Shown here piece after piece: positions 5,831 to 56,426 of a stretch of DNA of 64,000 nucleotides. Numbering within the stretch: position 1 is the stretch's first letter; every line of letters starts with the position of its first letter. Source of the DNA: Squalus acanthias (lineage: Eukaryota); contig CM059432.1 of the NCBI GenBank assembly GCA_030390025.1, positions 31,436,001-31,500,000 of the forward strand, written 5' to 3'. The notes below the pieces were generated by a model, which was not told the DNA's origin, searched no databases, and saw nothing but the letters and a program-made list of their open reading frames with translations. Both the position numbers and the translations under genes were made by a program.

Positions 5831-6670
5831 ATGCAGCAAGACCTGGACGATATTCAGGCTTGGGCTGATAAGTGGCAGGTAACATTCGCACCACAGAAGT
5901 ACGAGGCAATGACGAGCTCCAACAAGCGAGCGTCTAACTACCGCCCCTTGACATTCAACGGCAATACCATCGGCAAATCCCCCACCATCAATATCCTGGG
6001 GGTCACCATTGACCAGAAACGTAACTAGACCAGCCACATAAATACTGCGGCAACAAGAGCAGGTCAGAGGATGGGTATTCTGTGGCGAGTGTTTCACTTC
6101 CTGACTCCCCACAGCCTTTCCACCATCTACAAGGCATAAGTCAGGAGTGTGATGGAATACTCTCCACTTGCCTGGATGAGTGCTCCAACAACACTCAAGA
6201 AGCTCGACACCATCCAGGACAAAGCAGCCCGTTTGATTGGCACCCCATCCACCACCTTAAAGATTCACTCCCTCCACCACCAGCGTACCGTGGCTGCAGT
6301 GTGTACCATCTACAAGATGCAATGCAGCAACTCGCCAAGGCTTCTTCGGCAGCACCTCCCAAACCCGCGACCTCTACCACCTAGAAGGACAAGGGCAGCA
6401 GGTGCATGGGAACACCACCACTTCCAAGTTCCCCTCCAAGTCACACACCATCCTGACTTGGAAGTATATCACCGTTCCTTCATCGTCACTGGGTCAAAAT
6501 CCTGGAACTCCCTACCTAACAGCACTGTGGGAGTACCTTCACCACATGGACTGCAGTGGTTCAAGAATGCGGCTCACCACCACCTTCTCAAGGGCAACTA
6601 GGGTTGGGCAATAAATGCTGGCCTTGCCAGCGACGCCCACCTCCCATAAAAACGAGTAAAACAAAAACAG
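5831..6670 (+). mobile_element. 3' fragment of CR1-group LINE family B
   Basis: MQQDLDDIQAWADKWQVTF ... SKSWNSLP ... HHHLLKGN followed by the tail GGGCAATAAATGCTGGCC. Highly similar to 20007-20920. Confidence 0.88.
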
Positions 6671-12747: not shown

Positions 12748-13225
12748 AAATGAGAAGTCGCACAACACCAGGTTATAGTCCAACAGATTTATTTAAAATT
12801 ACAAGCTTTCGGAGCTGTTGCCCCTTCGTCAGGTAGAGTTACAATGAGGGAATCTACAATATTTCACAGTATATAAACACCGAAAGCAATTTGTCTGCAG
12901 AGATACAATCGTTCAGGGAGGCCTTACATCAAAGGCACACCAGAGCACAGCCAAGACAATGAGATGGGTCACAGGGGGTCCAACGTGTCAAATCCTGCTG
13001 TCTGCAGTTGAGCTTTTAACTTTTTTTTTTCTTTTTTTTGGTGTGTGTTTTTCTTTTAAAAACTGGAAAGACGGACAACGATGTCGAGTCACGTTCTGTA
13101 GCGTGACATGAACCCCATATCCCTATTGAGGCCGTCCTCATGGGTGCGGAACTTGGCTATCAGTTTCTGCTCGATGATTTTGCATAGTCGTGTGTCTCGA
13201 AGGCCGCCCTGGAGAACGCTAACCT
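12748..13225 (-). mobile_element. Penelope-like retroelement 3' fragment (family P2)
   Basis: Minus-strand translation KVSVLQGGLRDTRLCKIIEQKLIAKFRTHEDGLNRDMGFMSRY* (GIY-YIG C-terminus), then a pLTR with a hammerhead motif and AATAAA. Flanked by the direct repeat TGTAGAGAA (12739-12747 and 13226-13234). Confidence 0.85.
12799..12836 (-). ncRNA. Minimal type I hammerhead ribozyme motif
   Basis: Minus strand reads TAC-CTGACGA-A-GGGGC-AACA-GCTCC-GAAAGCTT-GTA: conserved core, 5-bp stem II, palindromic AAGCTT stem III and short stem I. Confidence 0.7.
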
Positions 13226-13239
13226 TGTAGAGAAGGTCA

Positions 13240-15440
13240 AGGGATCCGAGGGGGAGAGAGGAGAGGGGATCAGAGGGGAGGAGAGGGGATCAGAGGGGGG
13301 GAGAGGAGAGGGAATCAGAGGGGGGGAGAGGAGAGGGAATCAGAGCGGGGAGAGAGGAGAGGGGATTAGAGGGGGGGAGAGGAGAGGGGATCAGAGGGGG
13401 GGAGAGGAGAGGGGATCAGAGGGGGGGAGAGGAGAGGGGATCAGAGGAGGGGAGAGGAGAGGGGATCAGGGGGGGGAGAGGAGAGGGGATCCGGGGGGGG
13501 AGAGGAGAGGGGAACAGAGGGGAGAGAGGAGAGGAGAGGGGATCCGAGGGGGAGAGAGAAGAGGGGATCAGAGGGGGGGGGAGAGGAGAGGGGAACAGAG
13601 GGGAGAGAGGAGAGGAGAGGGGATCCGAGGGGGAGAGAGAAGAGGGGATCAGAGGGGGGGGAGAGGAGAGGGGAACAGAGGGGAGAGAGGAGAGGAGAGG
13701 GGATCCGAGGGGGAGAGAGAAGAAGGGATCAGAGGGGGGGAGAGGAGAGGGGATCAGAGGGGGGGGAGAGGAGAGGGGATCAAAGGAGGGGAGAGGAGAG
13801 GGGATCAGGGGGGGGGAGAGGAGAGGGGATCCGGGGGGGGAGAGGAGAGGGGAACAGAGGGGAGAGAGGAGAGGAGAGGGGATCCGAGGGGGAGAGAGAA
13901 GAGGGGATCAGAGGGGGGGGAGAGGAGAGGGGAACAGAGGGGAGAGAGGAGAGGAGAGGGGATCCGAGGGGGAGAGAGAAGAGGGGATCAGAGGGGGGGG
14001 AGAGGAGAGGGGATCCGAGGGGGGGAGAGAGGAGAGGGGGTCAGAGGGGGGGAGAGGAGAGGGGATCAGAGGGGGGGGAGAGGAGAGGGGATCGGGGGGG
14101 GAGAAGAGGGGATCGGAGGGGAGGAGAGGAGAGGGGATCAGAGGGGGGAGAGGAGAGGGGATCAGAGTGGGGGGAGAGGAGAGGGGATCGGGGGGGGGAG
14201 AAGAGGGGATCGGAGGGGGGAGAGGAGAGGGGATCAGAGGGGGGGGAGAGGAGAGGGGATCGGGGGGGGAGAAGAGGGGATCAGAGGGGGGAGAGGAGAG
14301 GGGATCAGAGGGGGGTAGAGGAGAGGGGATCGGAGGAGGGAGAGTAGAGGGGATCAGAGGGGGGAGAGTAGAGGGGATCAGAGGAGGGGAGAGGAGAGGG
14401 GATCAGCGGGGGGGAGAGGAGAGGGGATCGGAGGGGGGGGAGAGGAGAGGGGAACAGAGGGGAGAGAGGAGAGGAGAGGGGATCCGAGGGGGAGAGAGAA
14501 GAAGGGATCAGAGGGGGGGAGAGGAGAGGGGATCAGAGGGGGGGGAGAGGAGAGGGGATCAAAGGAGGGGAGAGGAGAGGGGATCAGGGGGGGGAGAGGA
14601 GAGGGGATCCGGGGGGGGAGAGGAGAGGGGAACAGAGGGGGAGAGAGAAGAGGGGATCAGAGGGGGGGGAGAGGAGAGGGGAACAGAGGGGAGAGAGGAG
14701 AGGAGAGGGGATCCGAGGGGGAGAGAGAAGAGGGGATCAGAGGGGGGGAGAGGAGAGGGGATCCGAGGGGGGGAGAGAGGAGAGGGGGTCAGAGGGGGGG
14801 AGAGGAGAGGGGATCAGAGGGGGGGGAGAGGAGAGGGGATCGGGGGGGGGAGAAGAGGGGATCGGAGGGGGGGAGAGGAGAGGGGATCAGAGGGGGGAGA
14901 GGAGAGGGGATCAGAGTGGGGGGAGAGGAGAGGGGATCGGGGGGGGGGAGAAGAGGGGATCGGAGGGGGGGAGAGGAGAGGGGATCAGAGGGGGGGGAGA
15001 GGAGAGGGGATCGGGGGGGAGAAGAGGGGATCGGAGGGGGGGAGAGAGGAGAGGGGGTCAGAGGGGGGGAGAGGAGAGGGGATCAGAGGGGGGAGAGGAG
15101 AGGGGATCAGAGGGGGGTAGAGGAGAGGGGATCGGAGTCAGAGGAGGGAGAGGAGAGGGGATCAGCGGGGGGGAGAGGAGAGGGGATCAGAGGGGGAGAG
15201 GAGAGGGGATCAGAGGAGGGGAGAGGAGAGGGGATCAGAGGGGGGGGAGTAGAGGGGATCAGAGGGGGAGAGTAGAGGGGATCAGAGGAGGGAGAGTAGA
15301 GGGGATCAGAGGGGGGAGAGTAGAGGGGATCAGAGGAGGGAGAGTAGAGGGGATCAGAGGAGGGAGAGTAGAGGGGATCAGAGGGGGAGTGAGGAGAGGG
15401 AGAGAGGAGAGGGGATCTGAGGGGGGAGAGGAGAGGAGCA
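13240..15440 (+). repeat. Purine-rich minisatellite, ~22-24 bp unit GGGGATCAGAGGGGGGAGAGGAGA
   Basis: Read directly as a tandem array with variant units (GATCC, GAACA, GAGTA) and higher-order duplicated blocks. Confidence 0.97.
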
Positions 15441-15744
15441 CGGAGGATGGGGAGAAGGTCAGAAACTGGGGGGGGGGAGGTCAGGAACTCGGGGGGAAAA
15501 GGTCAGGAACTCGGAGAAGAGAAGGTCAGGTAGTCGGGGGAAGAGAAGGTCAGGAACTCGGGGGAGGAGATCAGGAACTCGGGGGGGGGGGGTGGGAGGG
15601 TTAGTGCAAGGAGAGAACAGTGGGATGGGGGAAGAATGTGATCCAGGTCTAAAGGGGATGAGAGCGAGAACGTGATCCAGATGGGAAGATGGATCATTTT
15701 CTTCCCCCTCTGTTAGACGTGGATCACGTTCTTCCAACCGAATG

Positions 15745-15912
15745 AATTAGTGAATCCCTTCTCGCACACTGAGCAGGTGAACGGCCTCGCACCAGTGTGA
15801 ACTCGCTGGTGAATCAGTAGGTTGGATGACTGACTGAATCCCTTCGCACACACGGGGAAGGTGAATGGCCTCTCCCCAGTGTGAATTCGCTGGTGTGTCA
15901 AAAAGTTGGATA
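15745..15912 (-). pseudogene. Isolated C2H2 zinc-finger array fragment
   Basis: [53 protein letters not shown]: two TGERPF-type linkers, one zinc-binding Cys lost, both ends truncated. Confidence 0.85.
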
Positions 15913-16785
15913 CACACACGCACCCCACACACGGACCCCACACACACAGACCAGACATATGGACCCGACACACATGGTCCCTTCATTCTGAATTAATAAA
16001 TTTTTATTACCTCCAGAAGGAAAAAAAACCGCCAAAGATGTAACTAACCCACAATTAGAGAGTATAAAGTCTTTTATTTTACCAACCAAGGATAACTATA
16101 ATTACAATTGCAGAACACCAGATAACAGAGGATCTTCACAAAGCTAACTACACTTCCACTTTCTGTGGGCTGTGTGATAAGACTGGATCAAATTATGGGA
16201 ATGGTAGCGTCGTGGTAATGTCACTGGGCGAGTAATCCAGAGGCCTGGACTAATGATCCGGAGACGTAAGTTCAAATCCCATCACGGCAGCTGGGGAATT
16301 TAAATTCAGTTAATTAAATAAATCTGGAATAAAAAGCTAGTATCAGTCATGGTAACCATGAAACTTTTGGATTGTCGTAAAAATCCATCTGGTTCACTAA
16401 TGTCCTTTAGAGAAAGAAATCTGCCATCCTTACCTGGTCTGGCCTATATGTGACTCCAGACTCACAGCAATCTGCTTGACTCTTAACTGCAAGCCACTCA
16501 GTTGTAACAAACCACTACAAAACACAATGATAAGAATGAAACCGAACAGACCACCCGGCATTGACCTTGGCACCGGACACGGCAACGGCACACCCAGCCC
16601 AGTCGACCCTGCAAAGTCCTCCTCACCAACATCTGAGGACTTGTGCCAAAATTGGGAGAGCTGTCCCACAGACTAGTCAAGCAACAGCCTGATATAGTCA
16701 TACTCACAGAATCATACCTTTCAGCCAATGTCCCAGACTCCTCCATCACCATCCGTGGGTATGTCCTGTCCCACCGGCAGGATAG

Positions 16786-18605
16786 GACATGATTAGTGAA
16801 ATCAAGTGTAGGTCCCTTGCAGTCAGAAGCGGGGGAAGTTATAATGGGGAACAAAGAAATGGCAGCTCAATTAAATGCATATTTTGGTTCTGTCTTCACA
16901 AAGGAGGACACAAATAATCTCCCAGAGATGTTGGAGAACATAGGGTCTGATGAAAGGGAGGAACTGAAAGAAATCAGTATTTGCAGGGAAATGGTGTTAG
17001 GGAAATTGATGGGATTGAAAGCCGATAAATCCCCAGGGCCTGATAATCTACATCCTAGGGTACTTAAGGAAGTGGCCCTAGAAATAGTAGATGCATTGCT
17101 GATCATCTTCCAACATTCGATGGAATCTGGAACAATATCCATGGATTGGAGGGAAGCTAATGTTACCCCACTATTCAAAAAGGGTGGTAGAGAGAAAGCG
17201 GGGAATTATAGACCGGTAAGCCTGACATCGGTAGTGGGGAAAATGCTAGAGTCCATTATAAAGGATGTAATAGCTGAGCACTTGAAAAACAGTGACAGGA
17301 TCGGACAAAGTCAACACGGATTTACAAAAGGTAAATCGTGCTTGACTAATCTACTGGAATTTTTTGAGGATGTAACTGGGAAAATAGATAAGGGAGAACC
17401 AGTAGATGTGGTGTATTTGGACTTTCAAAAGGCTTTCGATAAGGTCCCGCATAAGAGATTAGCGTGTAAAGTTAAGGCACATGGGATTGGGGGCAAGGTA
17501 TTGACTTGGATAGAGAACTGGACAGAAAGCAAAGAGTAGGAATTAATGGGTCTTTTTCCGAGTGGCAAGCAGTGACTAGTGGGGTACCGCAGGGATCAGT
17601 CCTTGGACCCCAGCTATTCACAATATACATTAATGATCTTGATAAGGGAACTAAATGTAATATCTCCAAGTTTGCAGATGACACAAAGCTGGGTGGGAGT
17701 GTGTGCTGCGAGGAGGATACCGAGAAACTCCAGGATGATTTGAACAGGTTGGGTGAGTGGGCAGAAGCGTGGCAGGTGCAATATAACGTGAATAAATGCG
17801 AGGTTATCCACTTTGGTGTCAAAAACAGAAAGGCAGTCTATTATCTGAATGGCAATAGATTGGGAGAAGGGGAAGTGCAACGAGACCTGGGTGTCCTTGT
17901 GCACCAGTCGCTGAAGGTAAGCATGCAGGTGCAGCAGGCGGTGAAGAAGGCAAATGGTATGTTGGCCTTCATAGCGAAAGGGTTTGAGTATAGGAACAGG
18001 GATGTCCTGCTGCAGTTGTACAGGGCCTTGGTGAGACCACACCTTGAGTATTGTGTGCAGTTTTGGTCGCCTTATCTGAGGAAGGATGCTCTTGCCATGG
18101 AGGGAGTTCAGCGAAGATTCACAAGGCTGATACCTGGGATGGCAGGAATGACATATGAGGAGAGATTGCGTCGATTGGGCTTATACTCGCTGGAGTATAG
18201 AAGAATGAGAGGGGATCTCATCGAAACATATAAAATTCTGACAGGTCTGGACAAACTAGATGCAGGAAGAATGTTCCCGATGGTCGGAGAGTCCAGAACC
18301 AGGGATCAGAGTCTAAGGATAAGGGGTAAGCCATTTAGGACTGAGATGAGGAGGAATTTCTTCACCCAGAGAGTGGTGAACCTGTGGAATTCTCTACCAC
18401 AGAAGGTAGTTGAGGCCAAGTCATTAAATATATTCAAGAATGAGTTAGATATATTTCTTAAAGCTAAAGGTATCAAGGGATATGGGGAGAAGGCAGGTAC
18501 AGGGTACTGAGTTTGGATGATCAGCCATGATCTCATCGAATAGCGGAGCAGGCTCGAGGGGTCGAATGGCCTACTCCTGCTCCTATCTTCTATGTTTCAA
18601 TGTTT
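16786..18605 (+). mobile_element. Young 5'-truncated CR1 LINE (HER1-like) RT region
   Basis: ORFs 16796-17539 and 17506-18510 are joined by one frameshift and contain KSPGPD, NYRPVSLTS, YLDFQKAFDKVPH, GVPQGSVLGP, FADDTK and a complete CR1 tail. It is inserted in the APE of family B. Confidence 0.95.
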
Positions 18606-20180
18606 GACAGACCCACCAGGGGTGGCGGCACAGTGGTATACAGTCAGGAAGGAGTGGCCCTGGGAGTCCTCAACATTGACTCGGGACCCCATGAACTCTC
18701 ATGACTTCAGGTCAAGCATGGGCAAGGAAACTTCCTGCTGATTACCACCTACCGCCGTCCCTCAGCTGATGAATCAGTATTCCTCCATGTTGAACACCAC
18801 TTGGAAGAAGCACTGAGAGTAGCAAGGGCACAGAATGTACTCTGGATGGGGGCCTTCAATGTCCATCACCAAGAGTGGCTCGGTAGTACCACTACTGGCC
18901 GAGTCCTGAAGGACATAACTACCAGTCTGGGCCTGCAACAGGTGAGAGAACCAACACGAGGGAAAAAACTACTTGACCTCGTCCTCACCAATCTACCTGT
19001 CGCAGATGCATCTGTCCATGACAGCATTGGTAGCAGTGACCACCGCACAGTCCTTGTGGAGACGAAGTCCCATCTTCACACTAAGGACACCCTCCATCCT
19101 GTTGTGTGGCACTACCACCATGCTAAATGGGATAGATTCAGAACAGATCTAGCAGCTCAAAATTGGGCATCCATGAGGCGCTGTAGGCAGCAGCAGAATT
19201 GTATTCCACCACAATGTGTAACCTCATGGCCTAGCATATCCCTCACTCTATCATTATCATCAAGCCAGGGGACCAACCATGGTTCAATAAGGACTGTGGA
19301 AGAGCATGCCAGGAGCAGCACCAGGTATACTTAAAAATGAGGTGCCAACCTGGGGAAGTTGCAACACTGGACTACATGCATACTAAAAAACGGAAGTGGA
19401 CAATGTGGAAAACTGCCCAGGTATGTCCTGTCCACAAAAAGCAGGATAAATCCAACCCGGCCAATTACTGCCCCATCAGTCTACTCTCAATCATCAGCAA
19501 AGTAACGGAAGGTGTCATCGACAGTACTATCAAGCGGCACTTACTCACCAATAACCTGCTCACTGATGCCCAGTTTGGGTTCCGCCAAGACCACTCGGCT
19601 TCCGACCTCATTACAGGTTTGGTCCAAACATGGACAAAGGAGCTGAATTCCAGAGGTGAGGTGAGAGTGACTGCCCTTGACATCAAGGCAGCATTTGACC
19701 GAGTGTAGCATCAAGGGGCCCTAGTAAAACTGAAGTCAATGGGAATTGGGGGGAAAATGCTCCACTGGCTGGAGTCATACTTAGCACAAAAGAAGATGGT
19801 TGTGGTGGTTGAAGGTCAATCATCACAGCCCCAGGACAGCGCTGCAGGAGTTCCTCAGGGCAGTGTCCTAGGCCCAACCATCTTCAGCTGCTTCATCAAT
19901 GACCTTCCCTCCAACATAAGGTCAGAAATGGGGATGTTCGCTGATGACTGCACAGTGTTCAGTGCCATTCACAACTCCTCAGACAATGAAGCAGTCCATG
20001 CCCGCATGCAACAAGACCTAGACGACATTCAGGCTTGGGCTGATAAGTGGCAGGTAACATTCGTGCCACACAAGTGCCAGGCAATGACTATCTCCAACAA
20101 GCGAGTCTCTAACCACCTCCCCTTGACATTCAACAGCATTACCATCACCGAATCCCCCACCATCAACATCCTGGGGGTCA

Positions 20181-20260
20181 TCGACCTGAAACATTAACTC
20201 TGTTTCTCTCTCCACAGATGCTGCCTGAACTGCTGAGTAATTCCAGCATTTTCTGTTTTT
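20181..20260 (+). mobile_element. 80-bp Penelope pLTR fragment (family P1)
   Basis: Matches 46468-46550 and is flanked by the 13-bp direct repeat ATCCTGGGGGTCA (20168-20180 and 20261-20273). Confidence 0.88.
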
Positions 20261-21532
20261 ATCCTGGGGGTCACCATTGACCAGAAACTTAACTGAACCA
20301 GCCACATAAATACTGTGACAACAAGAGCAGGTCAGAGGCTCGGTATTCTGTGGTGAGTGTCTCACCTCCTGACTCCCCAAAGCCTTTCTACCATCTATAA
20401 GGCACAAGTAAGGAGCGTGATGGAATACTCTCCACTTGCCTGGATGAGTGCAGCTCTAACAACACTCAAGAAGCTCGACACCATCCAGAACAAAGCAGCC
20501 TGCTTGATTGGCACCCCATCCACCACCTTAAACATTCACTCCCTCCACCACCAGTGTACCATCTACAAGATGCACTGCAGCAACTCTCCAAGGCTTCTTC
20601 GGCAGCACCTTCCAAACCCACAACCTCTTCCACCTAGAAACACAAGGGCAGCAGGCGCATGGGAACACCACCACCTCCAAGTTCCCCTCCAAGTCGCACA
20701 CCATCCTGACTTAGAAATATGTCACCGTTCCTTCATTGTCACTGCGTCAAAATCCTGGAACTCCCTCCCTAACAGCACTGTGGGAGTACCTTCACCACAC
20801 GGACTGCAGCGGTTCAAGGAGACGGCTCACCACCACCTTCTCAAGGGTAATTAGGGATGGGCGATAAATGCTGGCCTTGCCAGCGACGCCCACATCCCAT
20901 AAACGAATAAAATAAAACACATTGCAGACTGCTCTGCAGCAGGCAGGATCAAATTACACATTGCAGACAAGCATTTGGGTGTGTCTTGTCCTCCAAGGGG
21001 AACAATCAGATATCTGGTCCAACCCACTGGTGTTGCCAATAATCATTGCCTTGAACAGTGGGTTAGCACATGGTCCTTTATCCTTTGGGGCTTGGTTTAA
21101 AATATACCCTGGGCTAATGAAATGAAAGTCTCCTCTCAATGCCAACTGTAAGAATTCTAGGTAAACTGAGTAAAGATCATAAGAGCATAAGATAGTGCGG
21201 AATGAGAAAAGGCTATTCGTCTCATCAATTTCACTCTATCCAGTCTCATGTACGATTATTCTATCATAGACTTCCTATAACCATCTGAGGTTACCTTACT
21301 TTAAAAAATAGGAGGAAAAACCTTCCAATCCTGTCCCTGAATTAGGACTAGAGTAAAGTGATACTTGCACTTGCTAAAATTGCACTAAACCCTGGATTTT
21401 TGAGTTTGACCTCATGAATTATGCATAACAAGCTTTCAGCTTGGATTGAGCCTGCCTGCCCTATGGGAACATTGGTTGGACACCACTGCATTAACTGGAG
21501 GTGGCTTTGAGAGTGCTAGGATAAGTGCATTG

Positions 21533-21835
21533 TCCCAAACCCGCGACTGCTACCACCTTGAAGGACAAGGGCAGCAGGCACATGGGAACACCACCACCTC
21601 CAAGTTCCCCCTCCAAGTCGCACACCATCCTGACTTGGAAATATGTCGCCGTTCCTTCATTGTCACTGCGTCAAAATCCTGGAACTCCCTCCCTAACAGC
21701 ACTGTGGGAGTACCTTCACCACATGGACGGCAGCAGTTCAAGAAGGCAGCACCAGCTTCTCATGGGCAATTAGGGATGGGCAATAAATGCTGGCCTTCCT
21801 TGCCAGCGATGCCCACATCCCATGAATTAATTTTT
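21533..21835 (+). mobile_element. Short 3' fragment of LINE family B
   Basis: HHPDLEICRRSFIVTASKSWNSLPNSTVGVPSPHG plus the family B tail. Confidence 0.85.
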
Positions 21836-27460: not shown

Positions 27461-27960
27461 GGCAAATGTAACTCCACTATTTAAGAAAGGAGGGAGAGAG
27501 AAAATGGGGAAATACAGACCAGTTAGCCTGACATCAGTAGTAGGGAAAATGCTAGAATCTATTATTAAGGACGTGGTAACAGGGCACTTAGAAAATAATA
27601 ATAGGATTGGGCAGAGTCAACACGGCTTTATGAAAGGGAAATCGTGTTTGACAAATCTATTAGAGTTTTTTGTGGTTGTAACTAGCAGAATAGATAAGGG
27701 GGAACCAGTGGATGTGGTGTATTTGGATTTTCAGAAGGCATTCGATAAGGTGCCACACAAGAGGTTATTAAACAAAATTAGGACTCATGGGATTGGGGGT
27801 AATATACTAGCATGGATTGAGGATTGGTTAACGGACAGAAAACAGAGAGTAGGAATAAACGGGTCATTTTCAGGTTGGCAGGCTGTAACTAGTGGGGAAC
27901 CACAAGGATCAGAATCTGTTATTATCCTTAATAGATTCTGGCATTTTCCCTACTACTGAT

Positions 27961-28272
27961 CACAGAATCACAGAATCACCACAGTGCAGATAGAGGCCAT
28001 TTCGGCCCATCGAGCCTGCACCGACACATATTCCACCCTATCCCTGTAACCCCACGTATTTAATCCCCCTAACACTAAGGGTCAATTTATCATAGCCAAA
28101 TCAACCTAACCCGCACATCTTTGGACTGTGGGAGGAAACCGGAGCACCCAGAGGAAACCCACGCAGACACGGGGAGAATGTGCAAACTCCACACAGACAG
28201 TCACCCGAGGCCGGATTCAAACCCGGGTCCCTGGCGCTGTGAGGCAACAGTGCTAACCACTATGCCACCGTG
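27961..28272 (-). mobile_element. V-SINE (HE1-like)
   Basis: Near-identical reverse complement of 39948-40313. Confidence 0.9.
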
Positions 28273-28789
28273 TTCCCCATTTTCTCTCTTCCTCCTTTCT
28301 TAAATAGTGGGGTTACATTTCCCTTTAACATAGTAAAATATCCCAAGGCTGCCTCAGCTATTCACAATCTATATCAATGATTTAGATGAGGGGACCAAAT
28401 GTAATATATCCAAGTTTGCTGATGATACAAAGCTGGGTGGGAATGTAAGTTGTGAGGAGGATGCAAGGAGGCTTCAAGGGGATATAGACAGGCTAAGTGA
28501 GTGGGCAAGAACACGGCAAATGGAATATAATGTGGAGAAATGTGAAGTTATCCACTTTGGTAGGAAAAATAGAAAAGCAGAGTAATTTTTAAATGATGAG
28601 AGATTGGAAAATGTTGGTGTTCAGAGGGACCTGGTTGTCCTTGTACACGAATCACTGAAAGTTAACATGCAGGTACAGCAAGCAATTAGGAAAGCAAATG
28701 GTATGTTGGCCTTTATTACAAGAGGATTTGAGTATAAGAGCAAAGACGTCTTACTGCAATTATATAGGTCCTTGGCGAGACCACACCTG

Positions 28790-29524
28790 GGGGGTGATTT
28801 TGCCAATGGGGAGCTTTTGGAGGCGGGACTCCCACTTGTTGGGTTTCAGTCCCGCCTCCAACAACTTCTGGCCAACCCACGCTATTTTCTCTTGATTGAC
28901 CTTGTTAAGCCCACCCAGCGGGCTTAGCAGGCCAATTAAGGGAAAGCCGGTTGCAGAGAACGTCAACGTATGACATTTCATCTGTCAAAAATTTTTGACA
29001 GATGAATTGTCATCGTTTGACAGCTCTGTGAAACTGTCAAACAGTCACATTCTCTATAGTTTGATGAGGTTTTTCAGAAATGAGATGGTTGTTGCATCTG
29101 AGAATGCAACAGCCATCTGTCATTTCCAAGCGGAGGTGCGAGACTCTCCGCATACACACCGACTGAAGCCTGCAGGAAGAAACAAAGGTAAGTACACTTT
29201 TAATAACACTTTGCATTTACCTCAGATACTCACCTCTACACTCTTGCACCCGTCACTTACCTTCATAGCGCACTTTTGCACCCACCCGACCCCCGCAGAC
29301 CCACTGCTCACCTCGCTGACCTGGCGGGTTTCAGAGCCTTCGGGAAGCCCGCACTTGTGAGGGCAAAAAGGGGATAATCCTATTTTCTGCCTGTTAACTA
29401 CCTGTTAACAGGCCTCCTGGGAAGATGGCATGGAGGCGGGTTGGGCACCCGCCCCCAAATTCTGCCACTTTCCCGGCAGTCCCGTCTCCATACCCGCCTC
29501 CCCAGGGCTGGCAAGATCGCTCCC
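28790..29524. mobile_element. Harbinger-type MITE
   Basis: TIRs GGGGGTGATTTTGCCA and TGGCAAGATCGCTCCC (13/16 match) with TSD CTG. It splits the CR1 codons RPHL|EYC. Confidence 0.85.
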
Positions 29525-30099
29525 CTGGAGTATTGTGTACAGTTTTTGTCTCCTTACCTAAGGAAGGATATACTTGCCATAGAGGGAGTTCAATGAAGGT
29601 TCACTAGACTGGTTCCTGGGGTGGGAGGATTGTTCTATGAGGAGAGATTGAGTAGAATAGGCCTATATTCTCTAGAGTTTAGAAGAATGAGAGGTGATCT
29701 CATTGAAACATACAAAATTCTTACAGGGCTTGACAGGGTAGATGCAGGGAGGATGTTTCTCCTGGCTGGGGAGTCTAGAACCAGGGGTCACAGTCTCAGA
29801 ATAAGGGGTTGGCCAATTAGGACTGAGATGAGGAGAAATTTCTTCACTCAGAGGGTGGTGAATCTTTGGAATTCTCTACCCCAGAGGACTGTGGAGGCTT
29901 AGTCGTTGAGTATATTCAAGACAGAATCGATAAATTTTTGAATATTAAGGGAATCAAGGGATATGGGGATCGTGCAGGAAAGTGGAGATGAGGTAAAAGA
30001 TCAGCCATGATCTTATTGAATGGCGGAGCAGGCTCGGAGGGCCAAATGGCCTACTCCTTATCCTATTTCTTATGTTCTTATATAAATACAAGTTGTTGT

Positions 30100-32786: not shown

Positions 32787-33455
32787 AGGAAGCAATTAGG
32801 AAGGCAAATGGTATGTTAGCCTTTATTGCAAGGGGGTTGCAGTATAAAAGTAAGAAAGTCTTGCTGCAATTATATAGGGCCTGGGTGAGACCACACCTGG
32901 AGTACTGTGCACAGTTTTGGTCTCCTTACCTAAGGAAGGATATACTTGCCTTAGAGTGGGTGCAACATAAGTTCACTAGATTGATTCCTGGGATGAAAGG
33001 ACTGTCCTATGAGGAGAGATTGAGTAGACTAGGCCTATTTTCTCAGGAGTTTAGAAGAATGAGAGGTGATTTCATTGAAACATATAAAATTCTTAGAGGG
33101 CTTAACAGGGTAGATCCTGAGAGGCTGTTTCCCCTGGCTGGAGAATCTAGAACTATGGGTCATAGTCTCAGGATAAGGGGTTGGCCATTTAGAACAGAGA
33201 TGAGGAGAAATTTCTTCACTCAGAGGATTGTGCATCTTTGGAATTCTGTACACCAGAGGGCTGCGGATGCTCAGTCGTTGAGTATATTCAACACTGAGAT
33301 CGATAGATTTTTGGGCACTAAGGAATCAAGGGTTATGGGGATAGGGCTGGAATGTGGAGTTGAGGTCGAAGTTCAGCCATGATCTTATTGAATGGCGGAG
33401 CAGGCTCAAGGGGCCAAATGGCCTACTCATGCTCCTATTTCTTACTTCTTATGTA
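32787..33455 (+). mobile_element. CR1 3' fragment
   Basis: ORF 32813-33382 (MLAFIARG..RPHLEYCAQFWSPYLRKD) plus the CR1 tail. Confidence 0.92.
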
Positions 33456-33869: not shown

Positions 33870-34030
33870 TGGGCAGGCCTATATATGACTCCAGTCCCAG
33901 AGTGTCGTGATTGACTCTTAATTGTCCTCTGAAGTGGTCAATCAAGCAACTCAGTTGTATCGCAAGCAGAGGTGGGCAATAAATGGTGACTTGTCAGTGA
34001 TGGCCACATCCTGAGAATGAATTTTTAAAA
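33870..34030 (+). mobile_element. SINE-like derivative joining the family B 5' core to the family B 3' tail
   Basis: GGCCTATATATGACTCCAG..TTGACTCTTAA..CTCAGTTGTA (compare 16441-16506) followed directly by GGGCAATAAATG..CCACATCC (compare 20860-20900). Confidence 0.7.
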
Positions 34031-45758: not shown

Positions 45759-46552
45759 ACACATGCCCTTATACCTCCCCCCTTCCCACTGTCCAGGGCC
45801 CCAAACACCCCTTCCAGGTGAAACAGTGGTTTACTTGTACTTCTTGCAATTTAGTATACTGTATTCGCTGCTCACGATGTGGTCTCCTCTACATTGGGGA
45901 GACCAAACGCAGATTGGGTGACCGCTTTGTGGAACACCTCCTGTTCAGTCTGTAAGGGGGACCCCGAGCTTCCGGTCGCCTGTCACTTTAATTCACTGCT
46001 CCACTCCCACTCGGACCTCACCGTCCTCGGCCACTTACACTGTTCCACGGAAGCTCGGTGTAAGCTCGAGGAACAGCACCTCATCTTTCATTTAGGCACT
46101 TTACAGCCCACTGGACTCAACATCGAGTTCAACAATTTCAGATCATAACCCAACCCCTATCATATGTATATTTTTTATCCACACTTTTTGTTTGTGCCTT
46201 CTGTTCTTCTCTCCCACATGGCAGCTGTCTTTCATTCTGCCAGCGCAATTCACACTTCATCTAGAGCCATCCTTTGTTTCTTAACCTGTCCCATTACCAT
46301 CTCCTTTTGCCTTGAATATCTCTTAATGTCTCTTAACCTCTCCTGCCTTCTATCCTATCACAGACCTTCCCTTTTGTTCTTTCATTCCCTCCCCCCTTTC
46401 CCAGCCCCTAAACTTGCTTAAAAATCTGTTCCATTTCCTGCTTTTTTCCAGTTCTGACGAAAGGTCATCGACCTGAAACGTTAACTCTGTTTCTCTCTTC
46501 ACAGATGCTGCCTGACCTGCTGAGTATCTCCAGCATTTTCTGTTTTTATTAT
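45759..46552 (+). mobile_element. Penelope-like retroelement 3' fragment (family P1) with GIY-YIG endonuclease
   Basis: FTCTSCNLVYCIRCSRCGLLYIGETKRRLGDRFVEHL ... EQHLIFHLGTLQPTGLNIEF*. Flanked by the 14-bp repeat AGCATGAA(T/C)GCGCA (45745-45758 and 46553-46566). Confidence 0.93.
46450..46486 (+). ncRNA. Minimal type I hammerhead ribozyme motif
   Basis: AGTT-CTGACGA-A-AGGTC-ATC-GACCT-GAAACGTT-AACT. Confidence 0.72.
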
Positions 46553-53974: not shown

Positions 53975-54190
53975 ATGTAGAGTGGGACTGGAGTCACGTG
54001 TAAACCCGATGGGGATGGCAGGTTTCCTTCCCTGAAGAACATTTGTGAGTTTTTGCAGCATCTTTCATGGTCCTTTTTCTCTGGTGCTGCCTGATTTAGT
54101 GAATTCAGATTGATAACTTGCTAAAGTGGAATTTGAATTTATGACCTCTGCCCTCCTAGCCCACTACCGTAATTACTATGCTAGCATACC
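53975..54190 (-). mobile_element. Decayed copy of the family B tRNA-like head and core
   Basis: GATGGCAGGTTTCCTTCCCTGAAGAACATT and ATTTGAATTTATGACCTC are reverse complements of segments of 16260-16450. Confidence 0.6.
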
Positions 54191-54809
54191 TTTAACTGTG
54201 TTCTGCTATTAGTAAACATGTTAACATGTTGTAATTAGAATTCTTTCATCCACTATTTTGCCAGAGAGTGTTTATTTTAATCAAAAATTGGCACACAACT
54301 TTTTAAACTATGTTATTTTTTGTTAGTGAACTTTTCTGCTCATCAAATTGAGGAGTGCCAGTGCAGGGAATGGGACCCTGGTTGATAACATCAAGCAAGA
54401 GAGGTGAAGCATGGGTTAAATACAGAGTAAAAGGAATTAGTCCGGGTTCCCGCTGCTGATTGTTAGTCACTGACTGTTCTTGTAAAGTGTGCATGTTTAG
54501 CGATCAGATGAATGCACCAACACTCTCCATCGAGGCTTACATATAAACACTGGCCACTTAAGCAAGGTAATAGGGAGTTACTAATGACAGTGGAACCGTA
54601 CATCAGCAAGAGGAGGGGAGAAAACTGACAAAGCAGAAACGAGAACAAACATACAAGAATTTGGATTCCTTTTTGTTCCAAATATCATTTCCTTCATAAC
54701 GTTCCCTGAATATCAACACTGCCCTCTACAGTCATCATAGTGCAACACTCGGTCTCTTCACAGAAGTCATTCTGGATGTTTCATAGTACTTTATGATGGT
54801 CCAGTGTGT

Positions 54810-55165: not shown

Positions 55166-56174
55166 CTTTCCTCTTTATTTATATCCTTACCATTGATGGA
55201 TATGAGGTTCTCTATTAAGAGATCTTCACTCAGTTTTGCTTCTTGCTTGTGGTGGGAAAACCATTTAATTCATAGAATATTTGTCAAACTAAATTGTTAC
55301 TCTAGCCTGAGTTAGTTTTTAGACCCTAATAGGCTAAATATACATTGGGTTTTTCCAGACCCCTTTAAACAAGTTGGAAACTAGGAAACACTGAGATGTC
55401 GGTTTAATGCTTTTTAATTATATTACACAACCCACTACATACATTGACCATGAGATTACTGGTACAGACAGATACTCAAGGGAGGCCTCATCAGGATCAG
55501 TTGTAAGGGGATAATTTTAATCTGTTTACACTGGTTGGAACTAGAAGTTTCAAGTCCCCTGAACTTTTGTGTGTTGTATCATTTATAGTGTTAGTAACGT
55601 GTTGCTAGCGTGATGATAACATGTCAACATGTTCTGGTTATTTTTAATTAATATGTAACCCGTTAACCCATTAAGCCACCGTGTAAATTATGTAATCCTC
55701 TTTAGTGCACCTGTGCAGCACTATCATTGCTTTTCTCATGGTTTGTACCTTACTATCTTATCTTTTCTCATACCTTTCTTATTAGTCTATTGTATTCGGA
55801 AATCTTCCGATCATCTCCTGACTGCTTCGCTCGATGCCTAGACCACACGATGTATGCCCTTGCAGATTATTAGTCCATTAATGTCTGTTCAAGGGTTCTA
55901 ATCTTGTCCTGAATATGACTTCTTAGAATCTGCTTATATTACAGATTCTAGCTTTAATATGTGTAAGTGCCTTTGATATTGAGAAATTTTTTAATTAAAG
56001 TTATTAGAATTATTATGGTCTTTCCCACATGGCCTGCCCCTGTCTACAGCCTGGCCTTAAGATGACACATAAGAGCTTAATAGCCTCTATCCTAGAATTT
56101 TCTTATGGAAGTTTTAACAGTCTCAGTGTGCTATTTTTGTATAAGCAAATTGACTGGAGGTGATCATAATGATA

Positions 56175-56426
56175 TAACAACAGAAAATGCTGGAAAAACT
56201 CAGCAGGCCAGGCAGCATCCGTGGAGAGAGAAACAGAGTTAACGTTTCAGGTCGAAGACCTTTCGTCAGAACTGGAAAAAAGCTTTTTTCCAGTTCTGAC
56301 GAAAGGTCTTCGACCTGAAACGTTAACTCTGTTTCTCTCTCCACGGATGCTGCCTGGCCTGCTGAGTTTTTCCAGCGTTTTCGGTTGTTATTTCGGATTT
56401 CCAGCATCCGCAGTATTTTGCTATCA
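56175..56426. mobile_element. Penelope P1 pLTR insertion forming a spacerless inverted duplication
   Basis: Arms 56175-56282 and 56283-56390 differ at about two positions. Flanking repeat TGATCATAA(T/C)GATA at 56161-56174 and 56427-56440. The sequence matches 46440-46550. Confidence 0.93.
56292..56328 (+). ncRNA. Minimal hammerhead ribozyme motif (mirror copy on minus at 56237-56273)
   Basis: AGTT-CTGACGA-A-AGGTC-TTC-GACCT-GAAACGTT-AACT. Confidence 0.72.

Follow-up and report, generated by a model that had tools for sequence, protein, structure and literature searches.

The window analysed here is a 64,000-nucleotide stretch of Squalus acanthias DNA, and its positions 16197-20917 hold one decayed copy of a Zenon LINE, split by a CR1 insertion. 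The copy is dead; in elasmobranchs, members of this family are about 3.3 kb long. All of its parts lie on the plus strand. It opens with a tRNA-like head (16197-16290), whose first base is 16197 and not 16199 as given at first. The A-box-like motif (16205-16215) and the B box (16270-16279) lie where they had been predicted, and a duplicated anticodon-arm-like unit (16224-16240 and 16245-16261) increases the spacing between the two boxes. The head is followed by a non-coding core (16291-16490) and by the remnant of a leader hairpin with its paired codon site (16491-16516), in frame with APE-RT. In this copy, 18 bases after 16490 that belong to the conserved hairpin are missing, the 5' arm is gone and the GCT of the family is replaced by ACT (16514). 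The start of the APE-RT frame (16508-16785) consists of an Arg-rich leader followed by the KVLLTNI motif, which begins at 16613 (about 16610 in the original prediction). Premature stops in this part are private to the window copy, including the one within KVLLTNI*GL (16634), which is TGG in other copies. As had been noted, the ATG at 16536 opens a short ORF in a different frame (16536-16676; 46 codons here, 48 in the family) that overlaps the APE start, and neither a SINE tail, poly(A) nor an ORF1 is found between head and APE. The frame is broken at 16786 by a younger, 5'-truncated CR1 of another family (16786-18605), which lies outside the Zenon element proper, and is picked up again at 18606. 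From there, the frameshifted remainder of the endonuclease (PF14529) and reverse transcriptase (PF00078) frame extends to 20854, with about 450 bases deleted at 19396-19399, and a short 3' UTR with an A-rich tail (20855-20917) completes the element.

The surroundings are rich in other repeats. Units resembling GAGAGGAGAGGGGATCA form a purine-rich tandem array of extreme GC skew at about 13200-15600, where the repeat itself yields long ORFs, and the minus strand at 15660-15900 resembles what we take to be C2H2 zinc-finger coding DNA, judged by eye from HTGE-type linkers. Two more 5'-truncated Zenon copies lie at 5831-6667 (94% identical to the family majority) and 21533-21832 (89%). A foreign insert at about 20183-20260, located in the Zenon reverse transcriptase region and apparently between a duplication of about 13 bases, matches window repeats at 46470-46549 and 56174-56391. 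The CR1 nested in the Zenon endonuclease retains long open reverse transcriptase frames, has relatives at 27462-30076 and 32800-33442 and ends in a tail resembling CR1-1_CM (supplement of PMC7245038).

The original prediction proposed an autonomous LINE family in which a tRNA-type head is joined to APE-RT, a proposal supported by a shared junction and a single frame. When the 3.7-Gb genome was searched with window positions 16199-16790 (592 bases), all 40 scored matches spanned the head-APE junction and covered nearly the whole query; the junction is thus not unique to this locus. Because the 592-base query itself selects for the junction, each part was also used separately as an anchor. Anchoring on the head only, 26 of 30 loci (the window's own included) continue into APE while four skip from the leader to the 3' end. 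With the APE start as anchor, 13 of 29 copies begin at most 25 bases from the 5' end, the other 16 breaking off inside the head or core. Of 39 copies anchored on the reverse transcriptase, five are full length, three stop within the head or core and 31 have lost more, their truncation points being scattered. Altogether, 18 of the 68 APE- or RT-anchored copies reach the 5' end, and all 18 begin with the tRNA-like head. None of the 68 shows a full-length form with another 5' UTR or an ORF1, nor do they have a common alternative upstream sequence (six pairwise matches, none at a matching truncation point). The first-look candidates obtained with the three anchors (6982 for the head, 3730 for the APE start and 3475 for RT) are not copy numbers. 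Thirty aligned copies have a single sharp 5' edge with unrelated flanks. Among 39 copies extended to 5.5 kb, 32 are collinear to the tail, two have an inverted 3' part and five show no tail within the fetched stretch. Further, the stretch is abundant, with an identical 5' edge, in public DNA runs of four other organisms, where some contigs join core and APE. Inspection of 17 copies by eye revealed no evident target-site duplications. Deletions of 5-20 bases confined to single Zenon copies are numerous; they often lie between short direct repeats, and the leader hairpin is a frequent site.

The family is the published elasmobranch Zenon (CR1-Zenon), already catalogued with a consensus in PMC13343379. 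Over the first 400 bases, compared by eye, our majority sequence agrees with SquAca_Zenon-1 (3314 bases) except for one base in an A-rich spacer and one site where two majority builds themselves disagree. Four further shark and ray consensuses start with the same head and core over these 400 bases, as far as they are given in that source. The published SquAca_Zenon-1/2/3 and CarCar_, HypSab_, RhiTyp_ and ScyCan_Zenon-1 are likewise described there as having a single APE-RT ORF, no ORF1 and an A-rich tail. In contrast, by eye, the first 400 bases of the hagfish and coelacanth consensuses reported in the same source show no such head, and these consensuses contain runs of four or more T (T4+). 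The copies studied here share a single APE plus RT ORF, the lack of an ORF1 and identity to the published consensus; their placement in the clade is that of the published tree. Zenon elements are described as ending in poly(A) (PMC13343379, in the part available), and A-rich or T/A-rich ends were found in 16 of 17 copies here. The lack of an ORF1, which had been singled out as unusual, is confirmed but is not a peculiarity of this family, as Zenon has no ORF1 in any of the phyla surveyed (PMC13343379, as far as available). According to the same part of that source, no elasmobranch member had previously been submitted to a repeat repository.

A majority sequence was built from 27 of the 39 extended copies, chosen as collinear and 93-97% identical to the majority. 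It consists of one 973-codon APE-RT frame that matches PF14529 and PF00078, with no AUG before the endonuclease, as had been anticipated: KVLLTNI lies at codon 38, and no Met occurs until codon 287, past the endonuclease. No ORF1 is present in the majority or the anchored copies. Selection was assessed by comparing variants common to at least four copies with singletons, CpG sites excluded. In the endonuclease part, before the first Met, shared variants are 8 synonymous and 6 not, against 87 and 248 among singletons (P 0.026), and in the RT part, after the first Met, they are 21 and 16 against 245 and 640 (P 0.0003). As the shared variants are rich in synonymous changes, the source elements with this head made protein, from the AUG-less endonuclease part as well, and were under purifying selection at the protein level. 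Distant relatives (32-44% identity) mostly have a predicted Met shortly before the APE motif, as judged by inspection, so the loss of the AUG looks derived. A 920-codon frame at G000:C53 that had been taken for an intact copy proved to combine the RT frame with part of a CR1. In Heptranchias, a gene model annotated as an aldo-keto reductase (P0119) includes about 260 residues that are 76% identical to Zenon RT, probably through faulty gene modelling or exonisation of a LINE fragment.

Two explanations would deprive the element of its standing as an autonomous LINE with a tRNA-like head. A SINE lying before a truncated LINE, or a single template switch, could have produced a chimera at this locus only, and SINE-like copies with an identical head do exist; yet the junction recurs in all 40 matches, in the public runs of other organisms and in five published consensuses, which refutes a one-off event and leaves it virtually no probability. 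The architecture is almost certainly real and conserved across sharks and rays. Alternatively, the family might be non-autonomous, that is, a long SINE-like RNA with a dead LINE body that is mobilised by the enzyme of another LINE. The endonuclease without an AUG and the lack of an intact copy among those fetched would fit such a family, but the majority frame is open over its entire length, both of its parts show synonymous-rich shared variants and the length of the element is kept (3244-3314 bases) in five species, all of which make a dead body very improbable.

Both boxes of the tRNA-like head are retained in the published consensuses of four other species, with the B box of HypSab_Zenon-1 one base short, and they are kept across five species although the intervening bases diverge. 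The Rfam tRNA model gave no match on the window copy and 22.6 bits (E 0.032) on a sister copy (L072), below the cut-off of 29, and ARAGORN found no tRNA in the 64-kb window. A search of the genome and the fetched clusters for a parent tRNA gave only Lys and Cys tRNAs (z 2.9 and 4.8, respectively), and no parent is therefore assigned. The core is unlike the Deu, Meta and UCON3 domains in a by-eye comparison with published supplement alignments, and its motif is absent from the searched collections of genome contigs and viral contigs. An initial reading of the head as SacSINE1 with a Deu domain was dropped on the same by-eye comparison with published Deu alignments. While a first metagenome scan found no relative of the element, a second yielded 80 distant LINE loci, none with a tRNA-like head. 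The element thus carries the A/B-box tRNA-like head of tRNA-derived SINEs (SINE2) at its 5' end, but at 3.3 kb and with a selected ORF it is neither short nor non-coding. Similarly, tRNA-derived SINEs with conserved bodies, such as shark SacSINE1, combine an A/B-box head, a non-coding core and a LINE-type tail in the available parts of their descriptions (PMC5499810, PMC4824008), but SacSINE1 has a Deu domain, and SINEs are short and encode no protein.

Vertebrate RNA polymerase III (Pol III) stops at runs of four or more T. As had been suggested, the consensus was checked for such terminators, and the sense strand of the 3.3-kb majority contains none, against 4.0 expected from base shuffling (P 0.015); T3+ runs number 7 where 20.1 would be expected, while runs of A, C and G are close to their expected numbers. 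When synonymous codons were permuted with protein and codon usage fixed, the T3 deficit persisted (5 against 11.2, P 0.0025) but that of T4 fell short of significance (0 against 1.8, P 0.13). Sense T4+ runs in the 27 individual copies amount to 13 against 116 expected; it should be noted that C4+ runs in the same copies are also somewhat low (236 against 382). In contrast, 75 CR1-type segments of the same genome have 133 T4+ runs against 103 expected. None of 41 distant LINE ORFs lacks T4, and their observed-to-expected ratio for T3 is 0.76-1.65 against 0.35 in the Zenon majority, these T-richer controls being the loci with a long enough match among the 80 (39 were left out). A tRNA-type head together with the lack of T-runs and of a normal start codon suggests a rare protein-coding element made by Pol III, and transcription of the family by this polymerase is likely on such sequence features.

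Directly before the open frame, the leader contains a hairpin with a four-pair stem and a 7-base loop that resembles the anticodon loop of an Ala tRNA. Its complement, GCTA, follows after a few bases; the majority has no second site of this kind, and only four loop-codon base pairs are possible. An in-frame loop-codon site arises in three of 300 dinucleotide shuffles of a 200-base window, with the pattern set after seeing the site. Among 47 parsed copies, the loop is unchanged in 32 and a stem change retaining a G-U pair is found in 20. In two sets of parsed copies, unparsed ones excluded, the GCT shares the frame of APE in 39 of 40 and in 19 of 21 cases, respectively, and the spacer is three bases shorter in 10 of the 40; as the spacer is an AAT repeat, 3-base indels would also be favoured by slippage. 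The published consensuses of five species have the same type of head, and their loop and GCTA are identical while the spacer varies. By eye, GCT is in frame in four of these five consensuses, in one via a 3-base indel, whereas the published SquAca_Zenon-1 is one base short in the spacer, placing GCT out of frame. The pairing is invariant, with no compensatory change seen. As a whole, the leader folds no better than shuffles (z 0.16, pseudoknots being outside the fold model) and matches no Rfam IRES family. By analogy, the arrangement recalls PKI of the dicistrovirus IGR IRES, in which, as described in the parts available, an anticodon-like loop is likewise paired with a codon before an AUG-less frame (PMC4132737, PMC3894237), although the Zenon leader would allow only four pairs and no PKII- or PKIII-like domain was found in it. 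IGR-type IRESs in non-LTR elements are raised in the accessible portion of PMC3894237 only as a possibility. We tentatively put forward the hairpin and GCT as a tRNA-mimicking start that may set the APE-RT frame, while regarding this as somewhat doubtful.

Both the polymerase and the start have competing explanations. The element could be an ordinary Zenon LINE transcribed by Pol II, its head being the captured 5' end of a SINE that acts as a Pol II promoter or is a passenger, and its scarcity of T-runs reflecting composition or the avoidance of splice or polyadenylation signals. LINEs are generally Pol II transcripts (PMC10886601, PMC5786205, in the parts available), the sense strand is T-poor (0.197) with a T4 deficit that loses significance given codon usage, and the element is embedded in longer sequence in RNA-run contigs, although these are contigs only and three of the runs were merely guessed to be RNA. 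On the other hand, the A and B boxes are kept in five species while the bases between diverge, every full-length copy begins at the first bases of the head, and neither the CR1 segments of the same genome nor the 41 distant LINE ORFs share the T-run deficit; we thus consider Pol II transcription rather unlikely. Independent of the polymerase, translation could start at the conserved upstream AUG (16536) and reach APE by -1 frameshifting or reinitiation, or could use a near-cognate codon reached by scanning, with the leader hairpin then having another job. Initiation of ORF2 that is AUG-independent or coupled is known in L1. The same is described for SART1 in the available part of PMC3894237, and the AUG is found in the consensuses of all five species. 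Although this ATG is kept between species, no protein constraint is seen in the frame that it opens. In the overlap, four of four substitutions of one other organism (G), as well as the two variants of another site, leave the APE protein unchanged and alter the peptide of the upstream ORF. Moreover, the APE frame is already open and kept in phase upstream of the AUG, no canonical slippery heptamer was seen by eye before KVLL, the ACG after GCT, tried as a near-cognate start, is ACA or AAA in other species, and an uncapped RNA would presumably scan poorly. Such a start appears doubtful to unlikely.

Generally, the head and core are not confined to full-length elements. A motif variant gave 545 exact matches in the genome against none for a control. 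Most of the 25 loci inspected carry older copies, with 71-91% identity to the majority, in which head and core are followed directly by the terminal 40-150 bases of the LINE, at join points that vary among loci; the core of the window copy is common to this head-to-tail family. The contigs of one other organism's run also join the head directly to the tail. In several derivatives the leader is retained as far as GCT, along with the end of the ORF, which would fit an origin by deletion from a head-bearing LINE. Two old SINE-like relics with the core of the Zenon head lie in the window (33870-34030 and 53982-54200, minus strand; 76-81% identical), and the former also ends in a Zenon-type tail. 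As far as PMC6740152 could be consulted, lepidopteran Zenon and the SIDE Persaeus likewise comprise elements of about 3.3 kb with a single ORF and poly(A) and head-to-tail deletion derivatives, but Persaeus is described as having no tRNA homology and no Pol III promoter, whereas the shark derivatives carry a tRNA head and look like SINEs. The only precedent found for a LINE with a tRNA-like sequence is RTE-1_DAn with its relatives, in the part of PMC5786205 available, but these belong to the RTE clade. The same part of that paper records the proposal that 5' parts of LINEs are the source of SINE bodies, with only RTE and Vingi donors found.

Our preferred explanation is an autonomous Zenon LINE that is probably transcribed by Pol III as a single 3.3-kb RNA which would also serve as the message for EN-RT, a reading that we hold with some confidence on the basis of sequence features. 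TFIIIC would bind the internal A and B boxes of the head, and Pol III would start at the first base of the head, read through the T4-free body and stop at the first T-run in the flanking DNA, as for a SINE. Since a Pol III RNA would lack an m7G cap, initiation would have to be independent of cap and AUG, for which pairing of the 7-base anticodon-like loop with the in-frame GCT just downstream, as in dicistrovirus PKI, may be the best candidate. The EN-RT protein would then copy the RNA from the A-rich tail by target-primed reverse transcription, a mechanism that is established for LINEs and leads to many 5'-truncated copies, and internal deletions would give rise to the head-to-tail, non-autonomous SINE-like copies. 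The full version of this proposal, a self-sufficient Zenon with an uncapped 3.3-kb Pol III message translated from a tRNA-mimicking pseudoknot in the manner of a dicistrovirus IGR IRES, is speculative and would at present be judged unlikely.

In the main text of PMC13343379, neither "tRNA" nor "polymerase III" occurs, and the head, the T-run deficit and the missing AUG therefore go unremarked there. CR1-Zenon is mentioned a single time in a whale shark preprint, with no reference to tRNA. The literature covered, from which most subscription papers, Repbase and Dfam, which may annotate the head, were excluded, yielded no paper describing a Pol III head in Zenon. These features thus appear to be unremarked in a family that is itself catalogued. 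In the usual view, LINEs are transcribed by Pol II, whereas elements transcribed by Pol III are short and encode no protein, SINEs measuring 100-700 bp (PMC10886601, in the part available). If confirmed, a LINE whose Pol III head persists in both sharks and rays, and whose 3 kb of coding sequence has been cleared of T-runs, would break this division. The family would also make two questions testable in one element, namely how LINE ORFs without an AUG are translated and where SINE bodies come from, with a SINE-like family that has head, core and tail in common with a living LINE. If the proposal is correct, Zenon would be the direct parent of SINEs by internal deletion and would represent a protein-coding Pol III gene of vertebrates with a viral-type start, kept since the split of sharks and rays.
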